A stretch of 58,218 nt of DNA, from IMG/VR virus record IMGVR_UViG_3300046171_000069, positions 1-58,218 of that record; one strand, 5' to 3'. This DNA comes from a virus (Duplodnaviria > Caudoviricetes). How positions within the stretch are numbered: the first letter of the stretch is position 1; every line of letters starts with the position of its first letter. Made by a program: the position numbers and the translations under genes. The notes beneath the pieces were generated by a model, which was given only the letters and a program-made list of their open reading frames with translations, was not told the origin of the DNA and searched no databases. Below, piece by piece: positions 6,147-41,077 of this stretch.

Positions 6147-12646
<6,500 letters not shown>

Positions 12647-18600: not shown

Positions 18601-21600
18601 TACTTGGTAACACGTTACACCCAACCACTGCGGCTCTTTTACGCGAAGGTGAACTAACTGAAGCATTAAAAGTATTAGCGAGCCTTACACCTAATAAGGA
18701 TCTTGCGCGGATTGCCAATGCCTTCGCTGACAAGCTAGGCAAAACAAAGGTTAAGTTGTTCTCGTCTAAGGCTAAGGATAGTGTTGCCGGGTCGTTTGAC
18801 CCTAAGACGAACACGATTAATTTAAATACCGCTGACGGGATAAGCCAGCATACGTTAATGCACGAGGTAGGCCATGCGCTAACTTCGGCAACGTTGGCCA
18901 ACAAGTCACACCCCGTAACAAAACAACTCACTAGTCTTTATAACGACGTTAAAGACAAGTTCGGCACTGCGTATGGCGCTAAAAATCTAGATGAGTTTGT
19001 TTCTGAAGCACAATCTAACGAACGTTTCCGTGCAGAACTCGCTGGGATTAACCCTGACGGATCAAATATTAACGCGCTCCAACGCTTTCTAAACATAGTT
19101 GGGAACTTATTCCGGCAAGTAGTGGGTAAAAAACGTAAAGACATTGAGTCCGCTATGACTCAGGCTGACGCGCTAATTAATGAAATCCTCGCTCCTGCAC
19201 CCGAGTATCGAGACGCGAACGCCCTCGCTATGGAAAGCACTTATGCTGGGGTGAAACAAGTAGCGGATAAAATCGATGCGTTACAAAAAACAGTAGGAAA
19301 GCCCTTAACCAAAAAGGGTCGAGCAGAATTCGGGCAGTTGGGCAAAGAAACAATAGATTCTCTTGGAGAGAAATACGGCGATTTGGCTCTTAAGTTCTTA
19401 GATATGAACGCTTATATAGACGTCGCAAGAGCAACTAACGCTAAACTCGGTACGGTAGCTCAAAAAGCTCTTGTCGCAATGGAAAGAATGCGGGGTGCGT
19501 CAGCACAAAGAGATGACGCTACTTACAAGGCTATACAACCTATGGAGCGATGGTTTGACAGCACAACTCCAGAGCAGACAAAGCTGTTTAACGATATTAT
19601 TTATAACCGTGAGTACGGCTCTACCATCTTCCAAGTGGACCCCACGTTAACTCGTGCACAGGCCGAGAAGAAGTACAAAGGTAAGCCAGTAGACGGTAAT
19701 GATCTATGGGCTATCTGGCAAGAAAACCAGAAGCAGTGGAAGAAATTAGAGCCTGAAGGTAAAACAGTCTACAAAGACATGCAGGCGTTTTACCGTAAGC
19801 AATTTGAAGAACTAAAAGAAGTTATATTTAGCCGCATCGAAACGATGGCTGATGGCGATACTCAGACCATTGCAAAGCTAAAAACTGAGTTTGAAAAGAA
19901 GTTGTTTGATCGAAAAGGTATGGATGTCTACTTCCCGCTAGTTCGTGAAGGCAGATACAAAATAGGTTTCCGGTACAAGCCCGGAAAAACACCTAAAGGT
20001 CAAGATAATTTTGTGTTCGAGATGCACCAGAACCGGAAGGACTGGTTAGCGCAACTTCGTGAGATTGAAAGTAATCCTGATATGGAGTTAGTGCGTTCTT
20101 CTGATAATGAATCGTTTGTGGATTATGCGAAACAAGCACCTTCGTCTTCGTTCGTAAACCAGACATTAAAGATGATGCAGGCGAAAAAAGTAGACGGTGA
20201 AGTTCAAGAAGCATTTATGCGGATGGTGGTTTCTACGTTACCAGAATCTTCGTTAGCTCGTTCACTACAAAGTCGAAAAAATACAGCCGGTCACGAGACT
20301 GATGCGCTCTACGCAATAAAGACTAAAGGATACGACCTTGGACGTCAGATAGAAAAACTAAAATTCTCAGGAAGTATGCAGAATATTCTATCTGATTTAG
20401 AAAAGGTATCACGGACAGAATCCGAAAAGTTTAAGCCAGAAGAGCAATGGAAACTCGAACAGTCCATAAAAGACTTACAGAGTCGAATGAATTTTGCTGT
20501 AAGCGGAGCTAAGTACAAAGAAGTAGAAGGAGTTGTACGAGTAGCTAACCAAATGGCGTTTGTAGGGACTATTGGTTTCAACACAGCGTCCGCTATGGTG
20601 CAAACAGCGCAGATACCTATGGTTGTCATGCCTATGATGATGGCTAAGTATGGAGTAAAACCGACACTACAAGCTATGTATCGCGCGATGCGACTAGTCA
20701 TGAGTGCACGTAACCATCGTCCAGAACTAGATAACTTATCCGCAGTAAAGGGTAAGCGGCTCGCACAAAAAGCCACCGACGCCGCAGGTAAATTCTCTCC
20801 TGCGTACGGCCTAGATGCGTATTACAAACAGGATGGTGACAAGTTTGTCGTTAGAGATGATATCGATCTTAGCAAAGCTGAAAGAAAAGAACTTGAAGAG
20901 CTTGCGCCTTTAGTAAAACAAGCATCGGACCGTGGACACTTAAACCGTTCTTTCATGGCTGATGCAGTCGGTTTGCTAGAAGGAGGTAGAGCAAAACGTG
21001 ACGACGGAATGGGGTCAAAACTTTTATCTGGTTTAGACACCGGTACAGCTATATCTGCCATGATGTTTAACCAAGCAGAACGTTTCAACAGACAAGTCTC
21101 TATGGTGCTGGCTTATGATTTAGCTAAACAAGAAGCGAAAAAGAAAGGCGAGACTATTAGCGAAGACGTTTTAATAGAAGAAGCGTTTAGAGAAACACAC
21201 CGGTTAAATGGCGGCTCGACATTAGAAACAGCGCCCCCAGTAGTTCGAGAGAACGTAGGCCGCGTGGCGGGTATGTATAAGTCCTATGGTATGCGGATGT
21301 ATACCACCATGTTTAGCGTAGGCGCTAATGCGTTAGGTGTGTACGACAAGATGCTAAAAGAGCAAGGTCTGTCTGATGCAGAGATAAAAGAACGTGTGTC
21401 AGTCGCACGTAAACAAGCCTTCGGCATCCTTGGTTCTTCGATATTCTTCTCGGGTATACACGGCGTCCCTATTTACGGCGCTATACAATTAGTATATGAC
21501 CTGTTTGCAGGGGATGAGGACGACGACTTTAACTCTGTGGTACGAGACTATGTAGGTGAAGGTTGGTACAAAGGCGCGGTTAACAAGATACTCTCCGAAG

Positions 21601-22271
21601 CTGGTGTAGGTATAGACGTCGCTTCTCGGGTGCGTTTGACCGGACTGATCATTCAGACAAACCGCTATCAAACTGACCCTTCAGCAGAAGAGTTTATTGG
21701 TTACTACCTTGGTGGTCCGGCGCTTAGTGTCGGTAAACGTCTTGGGCGCGGATTCTCTGATTTATATGATGGTGAGTTCCAACGAGGCGTCGAAAACCTC
21801 CTACCTGTCGGTATTTCTAATGCTTATAAAGTGCTCGGTCGTTATCAGCAGGATGGCGGCATCTACTCGCGTCGCGGAGACCCTATCTACGATGATATTA
21901 CTGGCGGAGAAATGGTAGGACAGTTCTTTGGATTTGCGCCGTCAGAATACACGCGGATTCAAGAGAACAACCAACGAGTTAAGAAAATTGACATAGCCTT
22001 ATCTCGAAAAGCATCTGAACTTCGCAAGCAATACTATCTTGCTACTCGCCAGAATGATTACGAGAAAGCTCGTGAAGTACTGAAAGAGATAAACAAGTAC
22101 AACCGTAATCACCCCAGCTTTGCGATCACACAGGATTCTATTGACCGGTCGATGAAGCAACACATGAAAACATCTACTGAGATGTACAACGGCGTAACGC
22201 TATCTCCAGCGATGCGTAGGATACTAGACGATCAGTTAGAAGCAGAGCGCAACGGTTTCATAGCCCCTTAA
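15681..22271 (+). CDS. Large polyvalent-type internal virion protein with zincin metallopeptidase motif
   Basis: 2196 aa; N-terminal hydrophobic Gly/Ala segment; GSFDPKTNTINL...TLMHEVGH...LDEFVSEA (HExxH plus downstream Glu); helical C-terminal region; last gene of the late arm. Confidence 0.75.
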   Translation: MLKISEIERALENAKRQGNAEAVQKITGILNRVRPKVEARPSREEQKRQYLDSLRESDFRVGDPSLGANIAGGFGSGFVGMGEMAALGAATLLEEEDELAARQKIQSVAEALRPERGDPDSISYKLASGLGSIAGIASPALLAAAAPISAPAAGAIGIGGAATLGIGAGAGEASERARAAGATEEERGTASLRGAAIGSLEVVPLTRIFRRLPKLRELFEKGGEEVKQEVKGLRKLFQEPQTALGRTGRTGLGEGAQEAAAGILQNLNERGYNVERELVDAGVLEEGAIGAGSGAILQAIVEAFTRGKPRGAPRTEEAPATEEEIVEEEQLLGLPAPVDPDELIQVRMPDGSTQEVPARIVEEARRKEREARETATQREQERRQEAIKDEERRGSTRVPTELIDDRLTADMSPEERARVRAQDEQIDAFTAERQAEQSKVDRKERQEKRAARKLGLRGDRIEDQPVLPGFEQDTEVQREMFGTRRVAGKDVPTIKRQKVTPESERLMRKPTPAPEQQEMRLEQPRAERRQIEQPLIGPKGGIPRRQKAPFKSATREPKPTPDIITEERLNELGVNRSSPLRNPKSGIIGKDLNDPAIRRRLTKFSQSTKLGSKKSRANVARLLEGISEKQGDLFTETTQGRGSATATGVRNAGITESEQVSSRASVPSAVPTVGTEPRVPSDGTGTEAVVAPEAGGVDDTGGRVGEPVRGTDTESASLETKTTTVSGQAKKATTGKQVTQKTTTSVTPAKKERKSRTTKGVVKRGVLSRPKLFEVPTDKDPVSDADVDAVEARLEEAVSRDESRSKTDERSALEAYFGRDERVIDALDRAIHDVVDESPRFTEQKGTSAETKAYFAQSGRENAKKVLAWAKKNLSEETNAWIKERTKQKKKALSRVSQRTVDVKKSEERKARNPSEMEAQAKVATQRVTEQYTNEQAYAEQEDARQQRDLDAEVQAIEEFFNEIPYELRTGDVVLGNTLHPTTAALLREGELTEALKVLASLTPNKDLARIANAFADKLGKTKVKLFSSKAKDSVAGSFDPKTNTINLNTADGISQHTLMHEVGHALTSATLANKSHPVTKQLTSLYNDVKDKFGTAYGAKNLDEFVSEAQSNERFRAELAGINPDGSNINALQRFLNIVGNLFRQVVGKKRKDIESAMTQADALINEILAPAPEYRDANALAMESTYAGVKQVADKIDALQKTVGKPLTKKGRAEFGQLGKETIDSLGEKYGDLALKFLDMNAYIDVARATNAKLGTVAQKALVAMERMRGASAQRDDATYKAIQPMERWFDSTTPEQTKLFNDIIYNREYGSTIFQVDPTLTRAQAEKKYKGKPVDGNDLWAIWQENQKQWKKLEPEGKTVYKDMQAFYRKQFEELKEVIFSRIETMADGDTQTIAKLKTEFEKKLFDRKGMDVYFPLVREGRYKIGFRYKPGKTPKGQDNFVFEMHQNRKDWLAQLREIESNPDMELVRSSDNESFVDYAKQAPSSSFVNQTLKMMQAKKVDGEVQEAFMRMVVSTLPESSLARSLQSRKNTAGHETDALYAIKTKGYDLGRQIEKLKFSGSMQNILSDLEKVSRTESEKFKPEEQWKLEQSIKDLQSRMNFAVSGAKYKEVEGVVRVANQMAFVGTIGFNTASAMVQTAQIPMVVMPMMMAKYGVKPTLQAMYRAMRLVMSARNHRPELDNLSAVKGKRLAQKATDAAGKFSPAYGLDAYYKQDGDKFVVRDDIDLSKAERKELEELAPLVKQASDRGHLNRSFMADAVGLLEGGRAKRDDGMGSKLLSGLDTGTAISAMMFNQAERFNRQVSMVLAYDLAKQEAKKKGETISEDVLIEEAFRETHRLNGGSTLETAPPVVRENVGRVAGMYKSYGMRMYTTMFSVGANALGVYDKMLKEQGLSDAEIKERVSVARKQAFGILGSSIFFSGIHGVPIYGAIQLVYDLFAGDEDDDFNSVVRDYVGEGWYKGAVNKILSEAGVGIDVASRVRLTGLIIQTNRYQTDPSAEEFIGYYLGGPALSVGKRLGRGFSDLYDGEFQRGVENLLPVGISNAYKVLGRYQQDGGIYSRRGDPIYDDITGGEMVGQFFGFAPSEYTRIQENNQRVKKIDIALSRKASELRKQYYLATRQNDYEKAREVLKEINKYNRNHPSFAITQDSIDRSMKQHMKTSTEMYNGVTLSPAMRRILDDQLEAERNGFIAP

Positions 22272-26875: not shown

Positions 26876-27194
26876 CAGACATCATCGTCAATAGGAGCGG
26901 TAAACATGTCAGCCCAATGCTCATCAGACTTATCAACCTCTGCCTGAGCTTCTAGACCATCAACCGTAATCTGAGCTACATCAACACCCAGTGCTTCGTT
27001 AAACGAAACAACGTTCGTTGTGCTGACTGAGTCAGGGCTTCAGATACATCGGCAATAGAAAACCGATAGGTGTTACCTACTTTTATGTAGGTGTTCTTGG
27101 GAATGTGTCCCTTACGCACCCAGCCTCTGATCGTAGATACAGATACAGAGAAGTGCTTGGACAGATCTTCGATTGGCACAAACGGACCGTTCAT
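26875..27194 (-). CDS. MerR/excisionase-like HTH DNA-binding protein (probable frameshift near 27010, acidic tail to 26875)
   Basis: IEDLSKHFSVSVSTIRGWVRKGHIP...IKVGNTYRF. Confidence 0.75.
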
Positions 27195-29689: not shown

Positions 29690-30360
29690 TAGTTACTCCC
29701 GTTGTGTACACATACTGTTACTGGACAGTGGCGCTTACATAACCCACTCGGTCGGGCATTCCACACGTTACGTTTCTCAGCCATCTGCATAATCGAGTAG
29801 ATATTTGTCCACTTAGTCCACAGCATACCCGCATCGGAATCGGCGTAGCTATCTTTTACTAGGTCATTACTCACGACGAACAACAACCCAGCACGTACGT
29901 GCGTAATCTTTGGGTAGTGTGCGAACACCAACAGTGCCATCAACTCTAGCTGTCCCTTGTCAGCGTACTTCGCACTCTTACCTGTCTTGTAATCAATTAC
30001 CCATGCCAACCCGTCTTCTTCGTTGATAATCAATAGGTCAGCAATACCTCGGTACCACACTTCTTTGTCGTAGAAGCTACACGGTAACAAGTTCTCAGTT
30101 ACACCCAGCTTCTCTTCACACAGCTTCGCACCTTTCTTGGCGCTAAGTGAATCAAGCATGGCTTGCGCGTAGTCAAACATTTTAGGGAGTGGAGTGCCGT
30201 CTCGGATGTATTCCTCAGCGGCTGTATGGAACGCATTGCCGTAGCGAATAGCTTCAGTCTCAACGAACGGATACTCTTGGAGAATCTTCTCGTGATAGAA
30301 CTGTTTAGGGCACTGCTCAAAGGCTTTCGCCTTGCTAAACGACCACGGCGCTATACTCAC
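29689..30360 (-). CDS. Cas4-like PD-(D/E)xK exonuclease
   Basis: WSFS...CPKQF, RGIADL, VIDYKTGK, QLELMA and C-terminal CKRHCPVTVC. Confidence 0.85.
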   Translation of the reverse strand: MSIAPWSFSKAKAFEQCPKQFYHEKILQEYPFVETEAIRYGNAFHTAAEEYIRDGTPLPKMFDYAQAMLDSLSAKKGAKLCEEKLGVTENLLPCSFYDKEVWYRGIADLLIINEEDGLAWVIDYKTGKSAKYADKGQLELMALLVFAHYPKITHVRAGLLFVVSNDLVKDSYADSDAGMLWTKWTNIYSIMQMAEKRNVWNARPSGLCKRHCPVTVCVHNGSN

Positions 30361-32197
30361 TCACAATCTCCATACGACCTACCTGTACCACTCTCGCAGT
30401 CGATAGGTAAACCTGCCGCCCATGTTGGGACTTGGCGCATACAATCTTCGATGTACGCTTGTGCTTCGTCCACCTCTTCGTCACGTACACAGGCCACAAT
30501 CGAATCGTGAACTGTTAACACAACGCGGTATCTCTTGCTAATTTGTAGCATCTGCTCACCAATTATGCAACGCGCTACTGCTTGACACAGGTTCTCTGTA
30601 GCCTTCCCGCCGTAGATTCGAGTTCGGCCTCGACGGGTCTTGTAGCTGTACTCCAACCCGTTCTCGGTTTGTTCTGCTGATAAGTCGTTATACCGTAGCA
30701 ACAACCCTGACGGTAATCTGACAGCACGTTCCGATCCCAACACTTCCAACACACCAGCCTTACCTACCTGCATAGTGTCACCGTTGGTCATGTAACGAAT
30801 CATGTTCTGGCAGTTGCGCCACAAGTGGTTGATCTTCCAGTTGGACTCGCGATAAATGTTTATGATACGACGAGCCTCATCAAGCTCCACTTCAAACCCA
30901 AAGTTCTTTAGCTGTGCTTGGAACTTGACTGCGCCCATACCGTAGCCCGCACCGAGGATGGTGGTCTTACCTACAAACCGTTGATCTTTTGTCACGTCTC
31001 GCTTCGTCGCAACCATAAGATCCGCGAAGCCATCTTTACGTAAGACGTCCTTCTCCCTGCAGCGAATGCCGGCTGTTAGATCGTCCTGCCTCGCCATCCA
31101 TGCAAGGACCCGTGCTTCTATCTGAGCAGAGTCCGGCATCGATTAGGGCTATATCCTTCTGGTGAGAGGATACTGCTCTTTAACTTCTTACCGTTGGTCC
31201 ACGACTAGGTAAGGTTCTGCATATTGATCTTGTCATCACCACCCCAGCGCCCAGTGTGTGCGGCGTAATAACGTACGGGTACGGGTAACATGCCCACGCT
31301 TACCTGATGTCGATAAATCTCTGCGTGCGCGTTTCTTCAAGCGTACTCTTATTACCTAACCGCGCGGCAACCACTGCCTGTACTCGTGAGTCCTCGTGAT
31401 CCGACAACGCCTTGAATGCTTCGTCAGACTTAGCGAAACGCGAATGTTTCTTTGCCCGTGGTTGCACTGATCTTCATGGGCGGCTTGACACCTAACCCTT
31501 CGAGAACTTCTGCGAACTTCGGGTTAGACATGAGATCTTCTTTAGACACACCCGCTGTTTCGAGTAGCTGGTCCTTCTGCTCTTTTGTATCTTCAAGGTG
31601 TTGTTCGAGTAGCCCGATATCCAGATCTAACACAGGTTCAACAAACATACGGAGCGTACAGTCGATCAACTCCAACTCCTGCTTGGGGAACCCTTTACGT
31701 AGAAAGATGTTAAAGAGTTTGTAAGTTAGTTCGACGTCATTGATGCAGTAGTCACCGTACTGAGAAAGCTCCTGTGCCGTGAAATCGGCACGGCGTTTGC
31801 CTAACGCGTTTAGAACTTCGGTCCCCTTAGCGCCGATCTGATATCGTTCAGCAAGCGCCTTGAGACTTCCGCCAGCGTCCACCCCATGTAAAGCACGGGC
31901 GATACAAAGAGTGTCAGCGTAAATGCGAGGATGAACATCAAAGAGCCAAGACAAAATAGCGCCGTCAAACATAGTATTGTGAGCAAGTACCATAGCGTCA
32001 GACCAATCGAACGTGTGTAGGTATCGTTTGATCTCATCATGTGAACCACTTGCCCATTCAGTGCCTTCATTGTTTACCTTAACTCCTACACCGATAACTT
32101 CAAAACGACGGTCGCGGATGTATTCTTCGGTTGTTATCTTAGACAGAGAGAAGTCTTTGTCGTAGTACGTCTCAAAGTCCAAAGTGATCAGGTTCAT
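30357..32197 (-). CDS. polA: DNA polymerase family A with 3'-5' exonuclease (several frameshifts at 31000-31440)
   Basis: LDFETY, AHNTMFD and YCINDV (exonuclease); AAHTGRWGG; DSAQIEARVLAW (motif A), RFVGKTTILGAGYG (motif B), TVHDSI (motif C). Confidence 0.9.
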
Positions 32198-32475
32198 CTT
32201 GGCAACCCCGTAAGACGCATAAACTTCTTAACCAGTCTTTTCCAACACACCCGCAGTTTTCTTGTGGTGCGTTTTGGTTTTGACGAGGCGGTCGTTTCTT
32301 CGACGTGTCGAGTGACAACCTCAGCAGTCATCCGCTTCGCATTCTCTTCTCTGGTGATCTTGTACGCGTAGCCATAAGACACCGACAAAACTTTCGATAC
32401 CATTCGAGGGCTAGCGTCAGGGTTTAACTTAAGATACTCACGTATCTTGTCTGCTTTTGACTTGTACTGATTCAT
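32194..32475 (-). CDS. Small basic HTH-like protein
   Basis: KIREYLKLNPDASPRMVSKVLSVSYGYAYKI; RBS AGGAGCACAAC. Confidence 0.6.
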   Translation of the reverse strand: MNQYKSKADKIREYLKLNPDASPRMVSKVLSVSYGYAYKITREENAKRMTAEVVTRHVEETTASSKPKRTTRKLRVCWKRLVKKFMRLTGLPR

Positions 32476-32546
32476 GTTGTGCTCCTATTGATGTTGAAAA
32501 AGCTATACGCGACCGGCATTGTCCGGCGCGACTTTGATACCAGTTG

Positions 32547-32801
32547 TCACAATCTGGTGGGGTCGAGGTCGTCGTCTAGCTCGGGGTGGTAGGCATCCTG
32601 CTCGCTCGCTTGCGCCAGTAGCCCGATTGATTCGTCGTCCGCGTCGGTCAGGCCATACACAAAGAACCCATCCTGTGTGAACCCTTCAAACGTCAGGCCA
32701 TCAGGACGTAGCCGGTAGCGGTCGTCACCTACTATGACCCATCCGTTCTCGGCGTATGCCTCTGGTGGGAACTTGTTAAATTCCATGAACTCGCTCCTCA
32801 A
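32547..32801 (-). CDS. Hypothetical acidic protein
   Basis: GAGGAG RBS before MEFNKF (start probably 32786). Confidence 0.6.
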   Translation of the reverse strand: MRSEFMEFNKFPPEAYAENGWVIVGDDRYRLRPDGLTFEGFTQDGFFVYGLTDADDESIGLLAQASEQDAYHPELDDDLDPTRL

Positions 32802-33120
32802 AATCTAGTTCAAGCTGACCGGCGTCTCTCGCTTGACCCCCGATCTCAACCATCACGTCGTCGATGTTGGTTTCGTTTATGACTAACGCTATGCCTTGGT
32901 TTAGTTTTATATCATTCAGATTCTTTTCTTGCAATGGGGTAGGCTTATTTTTTCCTGCTTTACATTCGATACCAAAGAACAATCCTTTGTAACATCCTAT
33001 GATGTCAGGAACTCCGCTCTTACCGTATCCCCCGGTAACTGGATAAAAGTAATAAGCTCCCAACGTCTTAAGGTGTGCTACCACTTTCTTCTTTACTTTC
33101 GCCTCGGGTGTCATCGCCAT
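32776..33120 (-). CDS. VRR-NUC domain nuclease (Holliday-junction resolvase-like)
   Basis: TPEAKVK, GVPDII, GIECKAG, PTPLQ. Confidence 0.9.
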   Translation of the reverse strand: MAMTPEAKVKKKVVAHLKTLGAYYFYPVTGGYGKSGVPDIIGCYKGLFFGIECKAGKNKPTPLQEKNLNDIKLNQGIALVINETNIDDVMVEIGGQARDAGQLELDFEERVHGI

Positions 33121-33164
33121 GTTGTTCTCTCCTTGGTAGTCCACGGACTACCGTTTTACAGACA

Positions 33165-33187
33165 CAAAAAAGGGGGCCGAAGCCCCC
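33165..33187 (-). terminator. Intrinsic terminator
   Basis: GGGGGC-TTCG-GCCCCC followed by TTTTTT. Confidence 0.9.
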
Positions 33188-33203
33188 AACGTTTCTCACA
33201 CTA

Positions 33204-33524
33204 CTAAGACCGGTACACCCAAAAGGTATGCTCGTCGATACGTCTACCCACATCGTCAATCGACTGCATGGGTGGCTTTACCTTGAGCGTGTTAAGCACC
33301 GCCAGCTTTCGCTGTATCCATTCGGGCAACTCGTCCACCGAATCGTATGCCCCCTCAACTTGCGTGTCAACACCTTCCATACCAAAACATGAGACTAAGA
33401 CACTTTTCGTATTAGGGTATATCACAACGCGGTAGATGTTGTCATCGTGTGGTAACAAGTTATCTACAATACGTTCCATTTCCTCCAACGCTTGGATTGG
33501 AACGACCTTAGTCTGCAAGGACAT
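33204..33524 (-). CDS. Hypothetical early protein
   Basis: LPEWIQRKLAVL...DDVGRR motif, similar to the C-terminus of the upstream gene (LPEDLTRKLAVL...DGVG). Confidence 0.7.
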   Translation of the reverse strand: MSLQTKVVPIQALEEMERIVDNLLPHDDNIYRVVIYPNTKSVLVSCFGMEGVDTQVEGAYDSVDELPEWIQRKLAVLNTLKVKPPMQSIDDVGRRIDEHTFWVYRS

Positions 33525-34441
33525 AGAACACCCCGCGACCTGCGCTCACACCCACACCATCCACAAAGTCCTCGGTGTCGAGCATTTGCAGTACAGCAAG
33601 TTTACGTGTGAGATCCTCGGGTAACATGTCCTCGGTGTAGCGGTTGTACGCTTGGTCAAGCTCGTAGCTGTACGGATTGTCTTGCGTACCCTTGACGACA
33701 TCGAACAACATCTTGTCACGTGACTCGTATGCCATAACGCAGTAGAACGTCACACCTTCTGATGGCTGGTTAGCAAGCCGCTCATCTGCGGCGACCATCG
33801 CCTTCACGTCGCTCTCGAACTCAGGATCAAGGAACTCATGACCCATGTCGAGCAGGTGCTTTAGCTCTTTGTACAGTCTCGAATTCTGGTTAGGCTTTTT
33901 GTTGTATACGCTAGTCACAATGTCCACCACCTTCTCTGCTGTTGTACCTACGTCCTTAGTTAGCTTGTCGAACTCTTTACGCACACCATCCTTGAGCACC
34001 CCTGCTTTTATGCCAGCCAACCTAATCGGCGAAGGCCGACGCAGATACGTCTTAGCATTTTTGAGCGCGGTGTTTATGTTGATGGATGTTTTCGTGTGTC
34101 GGTTGTCGTTACCCCAACTGTACTTGTCGTTGGTAATCGCCCACGAGTGTACGCAGTACGTCGGTGTCCATCCGTTGGCCTTGTTGTCACGCACGTCGGT
34201 GTAACCGATCCAACCGATAGCCCACGGACAGTCGTCACGTGTCACCCAGTAAGACGTTCTGTTACGTCGAACAAACACAATGTCTGTCTCACGTGCACAG
34301 AGTGCTTTACCTACCTCGTCCTTGAACGTATCGAGATGTATGCGGTTCTGTTGTTCATCCTCACTGCCAGCCCAACCGTACTCAGTGCGCGGTCGGCGCG
34401 GCCTCCTTGATCTTCTCTACTGCAATCCAATTAAAGCTCAT
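33508..34441 (-). CDS. Hypothetical early protein (frameshift near 34390)
   Basis: ATG at 34441 after AGGAGAACAAC; joins ORF 33508..34278. Confidence 0.7.
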
Positions 34442-34475
34442 GTTGTTCTCCTATTTGGTAGTGCCGGCACTACCG

Positions 34476-34640
34476 TTATCCGTTGCGTACTTTGTCGTAC
34501 GCGTTTTTGATTACTTCGACCTCACGTTGTGCGGCCTTGGGTGTAAGCTCATCGTGGTGTAGCTCACCGCGCACAAGTATTGCGTTGCAGTGTTCTCTTA
34601 CGATCTTATCTATGATTGCTGTTGCAAATGCGTATTCCAT
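34476..34640 (-). CDS. Small hypothetical protein (54 aa), absent from ORF track
   Basis: GGAG RBS; MEYAFATAIIDKIVREHCNAILVRGELHH...; fills the gap exactly. Confidence 0.6.
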   Translation of the reverse strand: MEYAFATAIIDKIVREHCNAILVRGELHHDELTPKAAQREVEVIKNAYDKVRNG

Positions 34641-34641
34641 A

Positions 34642-35866
34642 TCACATGTCTCCAGATTTTATGTGAACTTGCTTACCTGTATCAGGCTTTGCTGTTTTGT
34701 TGTCCAGTATGCACCATAGCACAGGACAGTCCCATTGACCCCATGATCCAAACACGTACCCATCAGTCAGTACCACACAGGCTTGCGGGTTGATGTTGTT
34801 GTCACGTATGTAGTTGGGTACACACTCGACGCTGGTACCACCACCACCGACTGGCTTGGTCGCCTTGGGTAGGTTGTCAAGCTCGTGTGTATCGTATGAC
34901 TCGTCACCACGTACGCTTGGAGTCCCAGTACAACACGCGTATGCGTTCTGGCATGAGCGATTGACAGATCTGACGTATCTCACTCATGAACAATGTCAAC
35001 TCGGTTTGACCAATAGACCCTGACGTGTCAATGGCTATGACAAGCTCGCCGACCTGATCGCTGATACCACTGGGCATATAGTACCCAGACGATACGTAAC
35101 GCCTGTTAGGACGTGACCACGTGACTATAGTCACTACCCGCACACGTGTTCTGGATGAACTCGCGTAGCACCTCGCGCCAGTTGATCTGCGGCTCCAGCA
35201 ACTCACCGAACCGATCACGCTCGGAGCCATCGCCTACCTTGCCAGCGACCATCGCACCCTGACGTATGGCCTCGTCGATGTCACGTGCAAGCTCGCGCTT
35301 CTCGTCGTCGGTCAACTCCTGAGCACCCTCCCAGTCGTGCTCGTCGAACCCGCCATGCGTATTGACTCCACTGGCAACGTTGGTATCGGTCACCGTCACC
35401 GTCGCCATCTTCTGGTGACGAGTTCTCACATAGATCCTTGAACACTCGGGCCGCGTCCCAACCACGGTACTTGTAGTCGCGGTGCCCTTGGGCTGGCATG
35501 ACTGCCCAGCCGTCGGTGTTGTCGTCGCTGATCTTGATGTTGATCACATGGTCACATGCGATGTTGGCAAGCGTTGGCGTCTTGCTTGTACATCCACTCC
35601 CACGTGGTGAGATGTTTGTACAGCTTGTGGTACACCTCGTGTAGTACCAGAAACCGAAGCTCAGGATCGTTTATCTCCTCGACAAACGCACGTCCGTACA
35701 ACTCATCACGTCCGTTAGTACACGCGGTGGGCACAGTGTCAGACACCGTGCGATCACCGACCATCACCACACCCGCCAGCGCTACATACTTGGGGTTGCT
35801 GATAATGTCATACACAGCTTTGCTTACACGTTGCTCCGCTGTCAGTTGTTTACCTATAGATAACAT
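34642..35866 (-). CDS. Metallopeptidase (DUF2201-like, HExxH) plus vWA domain protein, multiple frameshifts
   Basis: PTACTNG, FLVLHEVYH, INWREVLREF, VIAIDTSGSI (MIDAS), GGGGT, VVLTDG. Confidence 0.85.
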
Positions 35867-35892
35867 GTCGTTCTCCTTGTGGTAGTGCGGCA

Positions 35893-36987
35893 CTAACTAC
35901 TTCTTGTCTGCGCGAACATGTAGTTGTTAGCCATCGCCCAGTCAGTGAACTTGCGGTTAGTCATCACGACCTTGCGGTGTGCGTAGCTGTCACGTGTCAC
36001 ACCACCAGCAAACATACCCTGCGCTTCCATGTCGAGACGTGGCAAGTACGTCATCCACGCGTCGATCCAGTCAGCCGACATCGTAGCTAATGACCTGTAA
36101 ACAACCATACACACAGCCGCCGCGCTGTCCGGTACGCGTGCGTTCAGCGGGTCATCCTTGATCGACTGGAGTGACGGTAGCTGATCGGCCAGCTTCACAA
36201 ACGCCATGAGGTCCATCGCACCACGGTCGCCGATTGTACCCATGAGTAAACTTGTCAGGGTCTGATCGTCATACAGGTGTCGTTGCTTGAGCCAGTCGGA
36301 CGCGGCTTCCAGCGAGCGCGGTGTCACAAACGCCGCACGTTGCGCCTTGGGATGGTAGATGTAGGGATTGTCATCTGGATCTTTGACATCCTCGAACCCG
36401 TGGAATAACTGCGGGTTGTCTTTACACCAGCCCAGTAGTGCGTGATCGACACCGGCATTGATCGCATAGTCCTCGATCCACTCGATGTTGCTCGGCTTGC
36501 GTAGCGTCACCACTGTTATGCGGTTGCGTGCGTGTGGTGGTAACAAGTCACCGACACCCTCGGCCCCAAGGTTAGTGGTAGCAAACACTATCGAGTCAGG
36601 GTGTAGCTCGTAGCCGCCGACCTTGCGCTCCAACATCACACGTAGTAACGCGTTCTTGACTGCGGGGTTGGCCTTACCGTACTCGTCGATCATGAGGATG
36701 ATCGGCTTGCCATGATGCAGACCCAGCTCCTCGTTCGTCGCAAATTTGACGAAATCGGCAGAGTCGAGCGTTGCCATCTTGGGGATCATGATGTCGCCTA
36801 GATCCTTGGTGGTACAGTCGAAGTAACACGGTACGTGGTCAGGTAGTGTGTCTGATAACGTGTTAAGTAGTGAGGACTTACCCGTCCCCATGTGACCCTG
36901 TACAAGGATCGTCCGTTGATTACCGCCGTGCTCGATAGCGTTGGCGACTTGGTTCAGGTTCAGTGCATACATTTGTTGTGCGTTCAT
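35893..36987 (-). CDS. MoxR-like AAA+ ATPase
   Basis: GHMGTGKS Walker A, LMIDEYGKA Walker B, FATTN, RNR, TPRS; adjacent vWA partner. Confidence 0.88.
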   Translation of the reverse strand: MNAQQMYALNLNQVANAIEHGGNQRTILVQGHMGTGKSSLLNTLSDTLPDHVPCYFDCTTKDLGDIMIPKMATLDSADFVKFATNEELGLHHGKPIILMIDEYGKANPAVKNALLRVMLERKVGGYELHPDSIVFATTNLGAEGVGDLLPPHARNRITVVTLRKPSNIEWIEDYAINAGVDHALLGWCKDNPQLFHGFEDVKDPDDNPYIYHPKAQRAAFVTPRSLEAASDWLKQRHLYDDQTLTSLLMGTIGDRGAMDLMAFVKLADQLPSLQSIKDDPLNARVPDSAAAVCMVVYRSLATMSADWIDAWMTYLPRLDMEAQGMFAGGVTRDSYAHRKVVMTNRKFTDWAMANNYMFAQTRSS

Positions 36988-37039
36988 GTTGTTCTCCAAT
37001 GTTAGTGTGGCACTAACTTTTTAGTAGTGTGTTTGTTGG

Positions 37040-37975
37040 TTAGATGTCGAGTGATGGTAAAGACTTGATGGCATTGTCCACGGCACGTTTGGTCTCGGCA
37101 CGTAGAAACGCGTCATCACGTAGTGCGTCCGGTGTGATACCACGCAAGGCATCCTCTAGCTGTAAGCGCATAGCCGACATCTGAGAGTCACCGGTCACGT
37201 TGCATACGTCGAGCAAGTCCACCATGTCGAGCACGTTGTCCACGAGCGAGTCACGGAATATCTTTTTCTTCTCGCTGTCGCCGTAGTCGAGACGTTCTGA
37301 CATCTTAGTGAGCGCGTCGTATACCCGATGCCACACATCGTCCATCGCACGGTTAATCATCTGAGAGTAAAAACCCTCGTAGTGAGACTTTAGTTGCTCA
37401 GTCGCTTCAGTGCCGATGTCAATACGAAAGTCGCCCGCGTCAGGTAGTGGGATGTAGTTGAGCCGGAACCCGAACTTAGACGCAATGGAATCGACAGAGG
37501 GGTAGTCGTCCGCACGGAACAACGCACCTAAACGTGCTTGTGCTTGACTGATCTCCCACTCGTACGAATCGAGAAACACCTTGGCTAGACGCTCGTACTC
37601 GTTTTGCATGTCGGTCATGGCTTGGTGGTACTTGGCATATTGCGCGGTAGGTAGTAGGCGCAGACCCGTGTCAGACCAAGGCATAGACATAGAGTAGTGC
37701 ATGTTGCGGATGTTACCTGTCAGCTTTTGGATAGCGGTTAGCTCCTCGCTGTTACCTAGTAGCTTCTTATGCACGTTGGCAATACCGGAGTCGGCACCGT
37801 TAGTGCGTGTCACATCAGTTGATGCACGTTTGTCGAGCTTGCGGCCTGTCCATGTGCTGATGGATAGCTCAACCAACATAGCAGAGGACGCGATGGATGG
37901 CGTACTGATAGCTGGTGCTACGTTGTCAGTTGGTAGTCCGTGGACTACCGAAGTGTTGCTATTGTCGTGTTGCAT
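37040..37975 (-). CDS. Conserved early protein (DUF3150-like) of AAA/vWA module
   Basis: SSAMLVELSISTWTGRKLDK...PWSDTGLRLLP...DYP; AAGGAGAACGAC RBS. Confidence 0.7.
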   Translation of the reverse strand: MQHDNSNTSVVHGLPTDNVAPAISTPSIASSAMLVELSISTWTGRKLDKRASTDVTRTNGADSGIANVHKKLLGNSEELTAIQKLTGNIRNMHYSMSMPWSDTGLRLLPTAQYAKYHQAMTDMQNEYERLAKVFLDSYEWEISQAQARLGALFRADDYPSVDSIASKFGFRLNYIPLPDAGDFRIDIGTEATEQLKSHYEGFYSQMINRAMDDVWHRVYDALTKMSERLDYGDSEKKKIFRDSLVDNVLDMVDLLDVCNVTGDSQMSAMRLQLEDALRGITPDALRDDAFLRAETKRAVDNAIKSLPSLDI

Positions 37976-38031
37976 TGTCGTTCTCCTTGAACGTTGTTGT
38001 AGTTGGTAGTCCGTGGACTACCGTGGTTAGG

Positions 38032-38100
38032 ACTGGGGAGCCGTGACACGCCATATGTAAACGTGTACATACGCAGGAATTACGCGCACGACCCCCCAGT
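38032..38100 (-). ncRNA. Structured 5' leader hairpin beginning at predicted transcription start
   Basis: Three stacked helices (14, 5 and 8 bp) with five G-U pairs that form only on the minus strand. Confidence 0.65.
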
Positions 38101-38106
38101 TGTATT

Positions 38107-38135
38107 ATTATCTCACATATAACAAATCATGTCAA
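38107..38135 (-). promoter_or_regulatory. sigma70-like early promoter
   Basis: TTGACA-N17-GATAAT. Confidence 0.8.
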
Positions 38136-38162
38136 GTTTTACGTTATTGTGGGTAGAAGTGT

Positions 38163-38548
38163 AATGTTCTGTTGTATTGTGTATTGTTCTTATAATGTTC
38201 GTTTTTGAAATGGCGTAACTTTTTGATTTACAAGCAATGTTCGAATGTTCGCGTTTTTGAGGAGATAAGAGCTACCCTGAGAGGGGTCTCTCGATTCTCT
38301 CAGAAACGAACAATACAAACGGAAATACTTTTACAGAAGCGTGTAATTTTTTAGAAAACGAACATTATAAAGATTATTAAGATTAGATAAGATAGAACAC
38401 TTTTTGATAGGCAAGAATTGTCAACGCCTTGCATAGGATGGTACCAGATGTCACCAAAATATAATGTACGCACATGCTTTTTAAAAAGCGAACATTAGCC
38501 GAACATTACGAACATTAGCCGAACATTACAAAATCGTTTCCGAACATT
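38163..38548. repeat. Iteron-like CGAACATT/AATGTTCG array with AT-rich segments (candidate origin)
   Basis: About 11 copies in two opposed orientations, plus a 15-bp perfect inverted repeat at 38191-38205 / 38355-38369. Confidence 0.75.
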
Positions 38549-38554
38549 GTGCTG

Positions 38555-38729
38555 AGGCTCGGCGCGACATGATTAACTGGTATCAACTTAGTAGTCCGTG
38601 GACTACCGTAGCCCGGGAGCAGGCCGCATTGCACACACGTGATAACACGTTAGGCTCGGCGCGGCACAAATAACTGGTATCGAAAGGCTCGGCGCGATGA
38701 GGCTCGGCGCGGCATATATAACTGGTCTC
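38555..38729. repeat. Bipartite repeat AGGCTCGGCGCG-N7-TAACTGGT(A/C)TC
   Basis: Full copies at 38555, 38652 and 38700; left half only at 38685. Confidence 0.9.
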
Positions 38730-38742
38730 AAACGGCAGGCAC

Positions 38743-38765
38743 AAAAAAACCCCGCCGAAGCGGGG
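38743..38765 (-). terminator. Intrinsic terminator
   Basis: CCCCGC-TTCG-GCGGGG followed by TTTTTTT. Confidence 0.9.
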
Positions 38766-38772
38766 TGAGTTG

Positions 38773-38940
38773 TTAGCGTACATCTATGTAGCGGGCTAGT
38801 GAATCGACGCCGGTGAGCAGTGCCACACTGAGCACTGCTGATACCAGAGCGGTAACCCACATAAAATTAAGCAGTGCCATCATGGTGGATAGAATGGACA
38901 CTGATGCGAAGATGATAAGAATGCACATCAATATAATCAT
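38773..38940 (-). CDS. Small hydrophobic membrane protein (55 aa), absent from ORF track
   Basis: MIILMCILIIFASVSILSTMMALLNFMWVTALVSAVLSVALLTGVDSLARYIDVR; AAGGT RBS; bounded by terminators. Confidence 0.6.
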   Translation of the reverse strand: MIILMCILIIFASVSILSTMMALLNFMWVTALVSAVLSVALLTGVDSLARYIDVR

Positions 38941-38953
38941 AACGTGTTACCTT

Positions 38954-38978
38954 AAAAAGGAAGGGCCCCGAAGGGCCC
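38954..38978 (-). terminator. Intrinsic terminator
   Basis: GGGCCC-TTCG-GGGCCC followed by TTCCTTTTT. Confidence 0.8.
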
Positions 38979-38984
38979 GATGGG

Positions 38985-39635
38985 TTAGAGTGATTTGATC
39001 ACTGCGTTGATGGCTTTTTTGACTTTGGCCGCGTCGTAGTCGGGTGCCTCGTCTTTTTCGCATTGAGCCACTACTTTTGCGAGCGCTTCCAAGATTTTGG
39101 TCTTAGGTGACTTAGGTGTTTTAGCCTGTCCACCCGTACCGTCAACTACATCTTTAGAGTATGCCCAGCCTTCCTGAAACTCTCCCTCGACCTCTTTCCC
39201 TTCCACATCGTGAACGGGGATTTTCTTAGACCAAATCACTTGATCTAATTGCTTAGAGATTTTACCGAGTCGGGAGGCAGGTTGACGGTTCCAATAATCC
39301 CAGTTGCCAGTAGTGGGTTCGGTTTTTTTCTGGGTAGGTGTTTTAGTCACATACTGCATACCCTCTTTACCGAGCGCTAGAATTTCCTGCGCTCCCGCTG
39401 GTAAGCCTTTCGCAATGTGGTCTATTAACCATTTTCGCTCGGCCGGAGTGCATCCCTCTGGGTTATTTTCCGCGTGAAATGGTGAACAATGTTCAGCCTT
39501 TTCGAACCCAGCCTCCTTAAGTGCGCATAGCACTGAGAAGCGTAGATCCTCGGTGGTTAACTCAGCATTAATAGATGCTGTGATCATTTTTCCTAGGCCC
39601 GAGTCTAGGTTGCGGGTAAATGGTACATTTGTCAT
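38985..39635 (-). CDS. First gene of the early arm, hypothetical
   Basis: 216-aa ORF with AGGA RBS, its own promoter and terminator. Confidence 0.75.
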   Translation of the reverse strand: MTNVPFTRNLDSGLGKMITASINAELTTEDLRFSVLCALKEAGFEKAEHCSPFHAENNPEGCTPAERKWLIDHIAKGLPAGAQEILALGKEGMQYVTKTPTQKKTEPTTGNWDYWNRQPASRLGKISKQLDQVIWSKKIPVHDVEGKEVEGEFQEGWAYSKDVVDGTGGQAKTPKSPKTKILEALAKVVAQCEKDEAPDYDAAKVKKAINAVIKSL

Positions 39636-39721
39636 ATCACTAATTCCTGTAAGTGATTTAAAAGATGGTAGTCCGTGGACTACCGTTAGTGCCTAGTGGG
39701 TTGTTCCCCGAAGGCAGGGCC

Positions 39722-39750
39722 AGTATCGCTATTATGTGATAGCAAATCAA
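39722..39750 (-). promoter_or_regulatory. sigma70-like early promoter
   Basis: TTGATT-N17-GATACT, with the same GATAnT -10 as the 38107 promoter. Confidence 0.55.
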
Positions 39751-40061
39751 GGGATAACCTGACAGATGATGAAATAAAATGAGCATACGTGGCAAATCGT
39801 GATATCCGATAGGGTACCCCACCCCCATCACCCCGCTGTCAGTTTAGGATTCCGTATCATCTATATATTACTAATTTCCACAAATTTAGAGTTACTTTTT
39901 GAGTTCAGCCCTTCCCCAAAGCCGCTCACAGGGAACACCCCCCTTACTCTTTGAAATCGGCTTAGAAAAAATTTTTCGCGTAAATTTTTTGGGTTCTAGG
40001 TAGTAATTAAATAATAACTTGTTACATTGAGTGAAACGGGATAGTAGCTGGGGGGCTACCC

Positions 40062-40409
40062 GTGCCATATAAGAGCCAGAGTAAAAAGAAGGCTCGGCAT
40101 AAGCGATACCACAAAGCATGGTACGAACGTAACAAAGAAAAGCAGAAAGCTAGGAACGCTGAGAACCGCAAGAGGTATCGCGCTGAGTGGAATCAGTTTA
40201 AGAGCGAGCAGGAATGTTCTCGCTGTGGCTTTGCTCATCCTGCGGCAATCGACTTTCACCACAAAGAGCCTGCAACAGACGACCGTAAAATTAGTGTGCT
40301 GACCTCAAACGGACAATACGCGGCGGCTAGGAAAGAGGTGGAAGAGCGTTGCATACCTTTATGTGCCAACTGCCACCGTATTTTGCATTGGGATGAGATG
40401 CACGAGTAA
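40062..40409 (+). CDS. HNH endonuclease
   Basis: CSRCG...IDFHH...CIPLCANCHRILH. Confidence 0.85.
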   Translation: MPYKSQSKKKARHKRYHKAWYERNKEKQKARNAENRKRYRAEWNQFKSEQECSRCGFAHPAAIDFHHKEPATDDRKISVLTSNGQYAAARKEVEERCIPLCANCHRILHWDEMHE

Positions 40410-40419
40410 ATACCACACG

Positions 40420-40448
40420 TTGTACCTAAACATGATCTGATGTATAAA
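40420..40448 (+). promoter_or_regulatory. sigma70-like promoter upstream of packaging genes
   Basis: TTGTAC-N17-TATAAA. Confidence 0.45.
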
Positions 40449-40482
40449 CCGACACTAACGGTGTAAAACCTGCGGAAACAAG

Positions 40483-41077
40483 ATGGCTTTAGAGATCGAA
40501 CCTGAGATTGGTGTGCCGATTCCAGACAAAACGCCTACCTTAGACCTTACAACTCGCGTAGAAGCGGGCTGTAACACAGCCACTATGCTCAAAGAACACG
40601 GGCTAGACGTCGAACCTTCCGCTGAAGATAACGAGATTGCGGCAAAACTGACCTTGGCTTACGCAGACGACCCTGAGAAGACATCAAAGAAGGTGAGTAA
40701 CAAGCGTGCATCCACGCTACCCCCTGCCGCGTTGGTCGCTACACACGGAATATTGACCCAGTTCGGGCATTCCGTCGTCGAAAGTGCCACACAAGTGCGC
40801 CATTTGGTGACTAATAAGCTGATCGAAGAGACCGAGAACCCCGACCCACGCGTGCGGATACGTGCGTTGGAGCTGTTGGGCAAGATTTCGGACGTAGGGG
40901 TTGTTCACTGAGAAGGCCGAGGTCACCATAACGCACAAGACGACGGACGAATTGCGGGAAAGTTTGCGTGCGAAGCTGGCAAAACTCGTAGAACCTACCG
41001 AAGAACCCGAGGATGCGGTGATTATTGACGGTGAAACGGTCGATATTGACGAAGAACTAGGGCTAACGGATGGCTGA
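40483..41077 (+). CDS. Probable terminase small subunit (+1 frameshift in G run near 40898)
   Basis: RIRALELLGKISDVG continues in the other frame as LFTEKAEVTITHKTTDELRESL..., ending over the terL start. Confidence 0.65.

Follow-up and report, generated by a model that had tools for sequence, protein, structure and literature searches.

What reads a short palindrome that recurs along the early genes of a phage genome, and is it read as DNA or as RNA? The question is raised by the IMG/VR virus record IMGVR_UViG_3300046171_000069 (Duplodnaviria; Caudoviricetes), which is rated 94% complete and was analyzed over its full length of 58,218 bases (hereafter, the window). Structural and lysis genes occupy a plus-strand arm (40062 to the end, then 1 to 22271), and early and replication genes a minus-strand arm (39635 down to 22581); the genes of the early region are on the minus strand, and "sense" refers to the minus strand of the window throughout. 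A preliminary description of this DNA reported eight copies of the palindrome, all in the early arm, and proposed that they are either operators for a dimeric protein or tight hairpins that expose or gate the ribosome-binding site (RBS). We consider it probable, on balance, that the palindromes are dispersed operators, read as duplex DNA by the product of the first gene of the early arm (hereafter, the candidate reader), which would probably act as a dimer and shut off transcription as a roadblock. All of the evidence comes from sequence comparison of metagenomic records, and the window itself carries frameshifts.

The eight copies were all found where they had been reported (Table 1), and they are far beyond chance. 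The loose pattern TAGT..ACTA has 11 matches in the 58-kb window against 4.96 expected, a number that was reached by 1 of 100 shuffles, and 8 of these 11 matches cluster at 33.1–39.7 kb. When the 18-mer was searched with up to 3 mismatches, 5 loci (10 strand-hits) were obtained against 0.02 expected. On the sense strand, the main form is GGTAGTCC-AC-GGACTACC. The three arm variants and the inverted central dinucleotide of copy 8 are as described earlier, and so are the two copies in leaders, the one in a coding start and the one in a repeat zone. The four junction copies (33135, 34457, 35881, and 37001) end 0–5 nt ahead of a Shine-Dalgarno sequence (SD) of the GGAGAAC..ATG kind. The palindromes flank a trio of genes for DUF3150-like, AAA ATPase, and VWA proteins (window 35893–37975), which are of the N4 gp24/gp25 kind.

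Relatives were collected by searching IMG/VR with the early ATPase. This search gave 312 related stretches. Of these, 80 loci were taken together with flanks of up to 6 kb (815 kb in total); labels such as L006 and L012 denote loci within this set. Palindromes of 17–18 nt were found in 80 of 80 loci at the same gene junctions, and nearly each locus has its own dominant version, so that the position of the sites is conserved among relatives. In most loci, a palindrome of the same build, with its own inner bases, lies upstream of the ATPase start. Arms starting with GTTAG gave 462 perfect-hairpin scorings in the 815 kb (overlapping registers counted), and no unrelated arm gave more than 33. The versions include GTTAGTG, GTTAGGG(A), GGTAGTCC, GTTAGTCC, GTTATAC, GTTAGGC, GTTATGG, and TTTACGGA, among others. 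Length is usually constant within one genome, at 17 or 18 nt: most GTTAGTG, GTTAGGC, and GTTATAC genomes have 17-bp sites built as 7+3+7, and the main type of the window has 18 bp. In addition, five complete relatives contain 6–16 sites each, all within one early block of 7–15 kb. Inside a genome the stems are uniform and the loops or centers variable, and at orthologous junctions the palindromes have been exchanged as small cassettes inside flanks that are 95–100% identical. Uniform stems in each genome, different stems between nearly identical genomes and variable centers together argue for a phage-specific factor that recognizes sequence.

Which gene could encode this factor? The gene of the candidate reader forms a self-contained, monocistronic unit that consists of a weak promoter-like site, a palindrome, an SD, the open reading frame (ORF), and a terminator (38978–38963). 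When the window was compared with its relative L006 in 150-nt bins, most bins from 33.2 to 43.0 kb were 0.97–1.00 identical. The lowest values were those of the reader gene (0.27–0.64); the bins with copies 2, 3, and 4 (38590, 38005, and 37932) were at 0.67–0.77, and a few others fell to 0.74–0.76. A blastn comparison found zero similarity over 38988–39689, i.e., the reader ORF together with its leader palindrome, and a boundary of the swapped cassette falls at 39689/39690. The version GTTAGTG occurs seven times in L006. The same gene has been replaced between L012 and L011, which carry the GGTAGTCC and GTTAGGGA types, respectively, inside flanks that are 91–97% identical. In both pairs (window/L006 and L012/L011), over the stretch covered by the partner, the reader is the only sense ORF of at least 60 amino acids (aa) without a tblastn match in the partner; the remaining sense ORFs of this size are 72–100% identical.

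The sites of the window agree with its reader to different degrees. Five of them match the type of the reader; copy 5 is identical to the L006 version and has not been converted to the main type, copy 6 is half converted, and copy 7 is intermediate. The window looks like a genome caught in mid-transition between site types, and in L070 the site ahead of the ATPase is likewise unconverted. The position of copy 4, within a coding start, is kept in relatives, each with its own palindrome type.

These swaps are part of a wider pattern. A contrast set was formed from the 50 locus pairs whose ATPases are at least 93% identical. The median reader identity is 96% among the 29 same-type pairs; among the 21 different-type pairs, which amount to four independent contrasts, it is 23–35% in 19 and 69–77% in 2. 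Palindrome type requires 10 changes when mapped on the tree of the readers and 13 on that of the ATPases, against a minimum of 8 and an average of ~27 in shuffles.

Two of the proteins that the preliminary description had put forward as binders can be compared in this light. The protein starting at 39635, our candidate reader, gains weight from the near-isogenic swaps and from the residue-base covariation described below. The 93-aa helix-turn-helix (HTH) protein encoded at 32194–32475 was rejected as the specificity determinant: L012 and L011 have different palindromes but share an identical N-terminal HTH part of this protein. A third, encoded by a 72-aa HTH_17 gene (26976–27194), is located beyond the loci that were collected.

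The reader family is unannotated, and as a protein family it is new. The window protein has no sequence match in Pfam, PHROG, or PDB; the family profile (alignment A1) reached a best E value of 0.1 against PDB sequences, Pfam scans of 37 family members gave scattered weak matches only, and 0 of 16 homologous proteins returned with annotation fields carried a name or a Pfam domain. A profile search of 1.84 billion cluster representatives yielded 664 clusters (defined at 50% identity) at E <= 0.001 and 422 at 1e-10. Within the locus set, 61 loci reach far enough upstream of the ATPase, and a profile search detected a family member there, in sense orientation, in 57 of them. For 42 of 62 family members, the ORF start has a site no more than 150 nt away. 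In L036 (2544–3925) and L050 (1782–3974), two paralogues of the family are adjacent, yet there is one dominant palindrome type.

The predicted models are confident and all-helical; the window protein and the L072 homologue have predicted local distance difference test scores (pLDDT) of 86 and 94, respectively. VIA-align rows mostly reflect a generic C-terminal helical hairpin (Z up to 6.3). Residues 47–107 gave two weak matches to HTH folds of the sigma region-4 type, namely 3mzy_A (Z 5.4, root-mean-square deviation 2.4, 59 residues) and 1xsv_A (Z 3.6), and the long helix of this unit bears the family motif, whose consensus is K..RRY.QQQIGS..D. A resemblance of the sites to those of ParB/KorB was also considered and set aside, given that the reader has no ParB-type family among its listed Pfam matches and no fold match.

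Further evidence that protein and site belong together comes from this helix. Motif position +9 is occupied by Arg in all unique sequences of the GTTAGGC types (6 of 6) and by Lys in those of the GGTAGTC, GTTAGTC, and TGTAGTC types (8 of 8), which come from three or more clades of the tree. In addition, GTTAGTG is paired with G-A-R..D-F and GTTAGGG with G-S-K..D-L. L069 and L070, which differ in type, have identical ATPases and readers that are 77% identical; the changes between these readers concentrate in the conserved motif helix, and the C-terminal 50-odd residues are identical. Collectively, across the family, residues of one conserved helix track half-site bases 6–7, with residue-base counts that are partly shared by descent.

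The same results bear on the possibility that the palindromes are passive RNA or DNA structures that lack a specific reader, such as stabilizer hairpins or selfish mini-palindromes, and that their link to the 216-aa gene is a coincidence of linkage. Intergenic hairpins are indeed common, and the reader gene and the nearest sites are physically close, so that they could hitchhike together. However, stems that are uniform in each genome differ between genomes that are 97–100% identical elsewhere, the differing stems include sites 5–6 kb from the reader gene (e.g., copy 8 at 33135), and four independent contrasts plus residue-base covariation would be hard to get from linkage alone. Such an explanation appears very improbable to us. 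Our comparison establishes a family of sites with conserved positions that, across the sequenced loci, co-varies with the reader gene and with the residues of one of its helices.

In which form would the sites be read? The preliminary description noted compensatory changes in the arms, which our data do not bear out as evidence of RNA pairing. The arm variants turn out to be site types of different lineages in a mosaic genome, and the 46 single-mismatch copies have no wobble bias (G.T+T.G = 9, A.C+C.A = 12, T.C = 12). In several genomes the arms vary independently of each other: sites with non-complementary hybrid arms number 8 of 13 in L064, 5 of 6 in L058, 8 of 11 in L085, 15 of 17 in L045, and 8 of 10 in L043, and an asymmetric site of L058 is present in both orientations. 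In the window, copy 6 overlaps the ATPase stop codon and has a T.C mismatch on the sense strand. A search of Rfam 15 over 32000–40500 on both strands gave 0 matches at E <= 1, and no RNA sequencing run that contains 32500–40100 was listed. The predicted fold forms the hairpin in 7 of the 8 window contexts and leaves the SD uncovered; because of this, and because conserved copies (38590 and its counterparts) lie far from any RBS, gating of the RBS by hairpins is unsupported. Of the two readings first offered for the palindromes, the operator is the better supported. Taken together, these comparisons point to duplex DNA, rather than RNA pairing, as the target.

The main rival explanation holds that the palindromes act in the transcript, as 7-bp RNA hairpins 5' of the SD that are bound by the reader or by another phage factor and serve translational control, nut-like antitermination, or the processing or stabilization of mRNA. 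Much of what weighs against our own reading speaks for this one. The main early operon probably starts near 38100, at a sigma-70-type promoter (38107..38135) whose equivalent, with 10–12 of 12 matches, was present in 12 of 12 loci examined. In favor of our own reading, host polymerase should read through the sites, as this promoter is conserved upstream. In 12 of 12 loci no site overlaps the -35 or -10 element, and the next site is at ~+35 to +166, in a transcribed leader or junction. Sites that lie downstream of a promoter and beside SDs fit action in the transcript at least as well as they fit a classical repressor. Among 397 unique perfect copies in the relatives (stem of at least 7 bp), 211 are followed on the sense strand by an SD and ATG with an ORF of at least 40 codons within 90 nt, against 4 on the other strand, and the SD starts no more than 10 nt past the hairpin end in 129 of 239 cases. 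The bases of the center are skewed on the sense strand (ACT 23 vs AGT 1, ACC 12 vs GGT 0; these counts are phylogenetically non-independent). Sites of 17 and 18 nt occur together in some GTTAGTG genomes, which is awkward for a rigid dimer and natural for a loop. Finally, the hairpin is predicted to form in nearly all window contexts, and a first gene with a site in its own leader resembles the N/nutL layout.

Other observations do not suit an RNA target. Imperfect copies have no excess of G.U pairs, and the five genome types with mostly non-complementary arms would be left with stems of only 5–6 bp. The loop, which is the part usually read by an RNA-binding protein, is variable, and the stem is uniform within a genome. 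The pattern of Arg with G suits reading in the major groove of DNA, the conserved copy of the repeat zone has no SD, and the hairpins do not sequester the SD. We therefore rate action in the transcript as rather unlikely.

The remaining points against our reading concern the candidate reader and its effect. No family member was detected in four loci that have sites (L043, L045, L083, and L084). Foldseek with both reader models returned nothing at E <= 0.001, i.e., no confident match to a DNA-binding fold, and the HTH resemblances to 3mzy_A and 1xsv_A are under the reliability level of the tool and are taken as leads. L036 and L041 share the GTTAGTG type with readers that are only 29% identical; both readers show the motif signature typical of that type. 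The difference between the reader tree and the ATPase tree in the number of type changes is only modest. Moreover, the sign of the regulation is purely our inference. As a separate observation, L045 and L043 have only GTTAGG-N6-CCTAAC with a free A/T-rich center (17 and 10 sites, respectively), and a different binder may serve in these two loci.

Could the palindromes instead be promoters for a phage-encoded RNA polymerase, of either the N4 virion hairpin type or the T7-like type? The ATPase, VWA, and DUF3150 genes are like genes of the N4 gp24/gp25 type, the stem and loop sizes are like those of N4 hairpin promoters, and a terminator lies immediately upstream of copy 8. A 2196-aa virion protein with a largely unassigned N-terminal part of 1270 residues could be thought to supply the polymerase. 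A search of the window in six frames for the T7-type polymerase family (PF00940) gave no match, with search controls that were also silent, and none of 51 ORFs looked like a polymerase in scans against PHROGs and, for 16 of them, also Pfam. The 2196-aa protein matched only large polyvalent, DarB-like, and PLxRFG relatives, its look-alikes in the atlas are unnamed or LPD-domain clusters, and it has no sequence match in PDB; the promoter idea was dropped. Besides, strong sigma-70-type promoters are conserved upstream, part of the SD would be lost from a transcript that started a few nucleotides past the palindrome, one copy lies within a coding start, and phages differ freely in the arm where the start region would be. 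A resemblance of the arm to the promoter cores of the T7 group was dropped as well, as it is not kept across phages. We find this explanation hardly credible. The 2196-aa protein itself (15681–22271, virion arm) has an LPD39 domain and a PLxRFG/DarB-like C-terminal part, and its first ~1270 residues match nothing named.

The surroundings of copy 2 raise another explanation, in which the palindromes serve DNA transactions as replication-initiator or partition-like sites, or as recombination or boundary sequences, and the reader is the corresponding factor. The copy is followed by a conserved ..ACCAGTT..GCGCCGAGCC unit, and the composite is also present in L012, L031, L015, and L072 and aligns in L006 and L009. 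One conserved copy lies in an origin-like repeat zone, beside ACCAGTT/GCGCCGAGCC units and AT-rich repeats. That the genomes are mosaic, that hybrid arms exist, and that the left border of the swapped cassette falls at a palindrome would also suit this explanation. Against it, most copies are SD-proximal and gene-oriented along 6.5–15 kb of one transcription unit, and they do not cluster at a single origin. The hybrid copy at 35881 is no crossover point, because the sequence is L006-like on both sides, and scans against PHROG and Pfam gave no recombinase or ParB family match in the reader. On these grounds, a role in DNA transactions is improbable. Regarding the zone itself, the origin-like non-coding stretch 38050–38740 contains three to four GGCTCGGCGCG-N-AACTGGT(A/C)TC units together with tandem CGAACATTA-type repeats and an AT-rich stretch, and the ACCAGTT/GCGCCGAGCC units are kept beside the palindrome in distant relatives.

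Returning to the dispersed operators, we infer binding of a duplex target by a dimer, with a repressive roadblock effect, and envisage the following course of events. The reader protein would be made at once, from a host-type promoter, and the conserved helix of a probable dimer would contact each half-site (~7 bp) as duplex DNA. The protein would then bind the site in its own leader, leading to autoregulation, as well as the leader and junction sites of the DUF3150-ATPase-VWA operon and the site in the repeat zone. Bound protein would most likely block elongating host RNA polymerase in the manner of a stoperator, so that the first ~6.5 kb of the early arm would be shut off by an auto-limited early mechanism. 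As protein and sites evolve together, close relatives would come to hold incompatible versions.

A further-reaching proposal, which we regard as possible but doubtful, is that, in marine phages that appear to be lytic, a hyper-diverse helical DNA-binding family and its dispersed palindromes form a specificity module that can be swapped. Cross-repression between co-infecting phages would then impose diversifying selection, and an immunity-like compatibility would exist without lysogeny. Recognition seems to follow a simple residue-to-base code, in which base 6 of the half-site would be, for instance, G where the protein has Arg and T where it has Lys. If the proposal is true, the module would constitute a natural library of orthogonal repressor/operator pairs.

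If our reading of the palindromes holds, a function would be assigned to an unannotated protein family. The phage group is abundant in public viromes, judging from its 312 ATPase relatives in IMG/VR and the 664 reader-family clusters. The swaps are natural experiments in which the specificity of a putative regulator and of its 6–16 dispersed sites changed while the genome stayed almost the same. As such, they bear on how regulons are re-wired and on the ways in which related phages evade or take advantage of one another, and matched protein/site pairs could become orthogonal regulatory parts.

Table 1. Palindrome copies, the candidate reader gene, and associated signals in the early arm of the window
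Feature	Position	Strand	Remarks
Reader gene (candidate)	38985..39635	-	216 aa; first gene of the early arm; putative palindrome binder
Palindrome copy 1	39667..39684	-	arm GGTAGTCC, 18 nt; reader-gene leader, 31 nt before ATG; in the swapped cassette
Palindrome copy 2	38590..38607	-	one arm base different; between a terminator and the next promoter; no SD near
Palindrome copy 3	38005..38022	-	operon leader, ~+78 to +95 relative to the inferred start; ATG at 37975 follows after 29 nt
Palindrome copy 4	37932..37949	-	codons 9-15 of the DUF3150-like gene 37040..37975
Palindrome copy 5	37001..37017	-	arm GTTAGTG, 17 nt; 3 nt before the SD of the AAA ATPase gene
Palindrome copy 6	35881..35897	-	hybrid, GTTAGTG arm and CACTACC arm; 3-4 nt before the SD of the VWA gene
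Palindrome copy 7	34457..34474	-	intermediate type GGTAGTG..CACTACC, 18 nt; 5 nt before SD
Palindrome copy 8	33135..33152	-	main type, center inverted; abuts the SD of the nuclease-like gene starting at 33120
Sigma-70-type extended -10 promoter	38107..38135	-	TTGACA-17-(TG)GATAAT, 11/12 matches
Intrinsic-terminator-like hairpin	38963..38978	-	directly 3' of the reader gene
Intrinsic-terminator-like hairpin with T run	38749..38766	-	after the 55-aa ORF 38773..38940
Intrinsic-terminator-like hairpin	33172..33187	-	19 nt upstream of copy 8

The order of terminator, palindrome, and SD at copy 8 is kept in L006, L007, L012, and L009. With respect to the wider setting, megablast of 33000–40000 against cultured phages found no cultured close relative. 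The large terminase is ~42–46% identical to those of 023Pt_psg01, the Pelagibacter phages HTVC027P and HTVC023P, and a few others, and the early AAA ATPase has at most ~30% identity (mostly 23–26%) to the ATPases of N4-like phages and a few others.

Several features of the record lie outside the palindrome family. The VWA gene and the next gene (34280–35869) are split into several frames in the window, with single-base differences from L006 near 35575, 35123, 34920, and 34385; in L006, L012, L011, and L009 the VWA gene is a single ORF of 399–408 aa, and the next gene encodes 307–310 aa. The broken frames are due to either assembly errors or real decay of the record. Similarly, the DNA polymerase (30357–32197) is represented by two ORFs, 31430–32197 and 30357–31139, with a gap of ~290 nt between them, and L012 has one 630-aa ORF in its place. 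An HNH endonuclease gene (40062–40409) is found between the divergent arms in the window and L006 and is absent from L012, L009, and L011 (bin identity of 0 there), so that it looks like a mobile insertion. For a 1572-aa protein (6147–10865), the sole Pfam signal consists of repeated acidic PARP-like low-complexity stretches.

How do the palindromes compare with known systems? Lambdoid immunity modules consist of a repressor and Cro with pseudo-palindromic operators of 17–18 bp, which cluster on two early promoters beside the regulator genes and thus move with them as one block. As in these modules, a regulator gene and its palindromic sites, of similar length, are swapped as a unit of specificity between similar phages, and an early-expressed regulator would turn down early transcription. 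Unlike lambdoid operators, the sites described here are spread over 6.5–15 kb of conserved genes, so that they must be converted one by one, and they avoid the promoter core. Against the HTH fold of repressor and Cro, the reader offers only its weak sigma region-4-type matches. In antitermination systems, an operon has one or two nut/boxB sites, whose conserved loop the antiterminator recognizes, whereas here the loops vary within a genome, the stems are fixed, and there are 6–16 sites per genome.

The stoperators of Cluster A mycobacteriophages (L5/Bxb1) are asymmetric 13-bp sites oriented with transcription (PMC6550527, PMC4351075), reported to be read by the monomeric two-domain immunity repressor of temperate phages (PMC9283540). 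As there, many copies of one short site occupy transcribed regions, mostly gene junctions past the promoter (PMC6550527), the motif differs among related phages along with its repressor or reader, and the proposed effect is a block to elongating polymerase. With 8 copies over 6.5 kb in the window and 6–16 in complete relatives, the sites are dispersed in the manner of stoperators. They differ from stoperators in being 17–18-bp palindromes, and an asymmetric variant (L058) occurs in both orientations. In addition, their candidate reader belongs to an unrelated, unannotated helical family, no integrase was found among the 51 ORFs scanned here, and no site overlaps the promoter.

A second mycobacteriophage group, Cluster O, has a 17-bp dyad repeat, TGTTCGGNNNCCGAACA, of which over 30 copies are spread across the genome and about one-third lie within genes; the authors predicted a dimeric DNA-binding protein, gave the function as unknown, and identified no reader, and the phages are not obviously temperate (PMC4351075). 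That repeat also has 7-bp inverted arms and 3 variable bases, its arms are invariant in each genome and its centers variable, the arm resembles the TGTTAGG/TGTTAGTG arms found here, and many copies are intergenic or at the 5' ends of genes. In contrast to the single version described for all of Cluster O, the versions found here are many and differ from lineage to lineage. The 6–16 copies stay within the early block, a reader can be proposed, and only 1 of 8 copies in the window lies within a coding start. If our reading holds, it would explain a class of repeats whose function was left unknown in Cluster O. In Cluster K, some of the genes have repeats tied to their translation starts: the SD is part of SAS, an asymmetric 13-mer, and ESAS, with imperfect 17-bp arms and a 4–13-bp spacer, forms inverted repeats just upstream, with reader and function given as unknown (PMC3203893). 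Unlike SAS/ESAS, the element described here is one compact palindrome of 17–18 nt apart from the SD, and some copies are far from starts.

The kind of system is therefore known, i.e., a regulator with matched sites in stoperator-like arrays. What is new is the protein family, the palindromic and dispersed format in apparently lytic marine phages, and the co-conversion of the putative regulator and its sites in situ.

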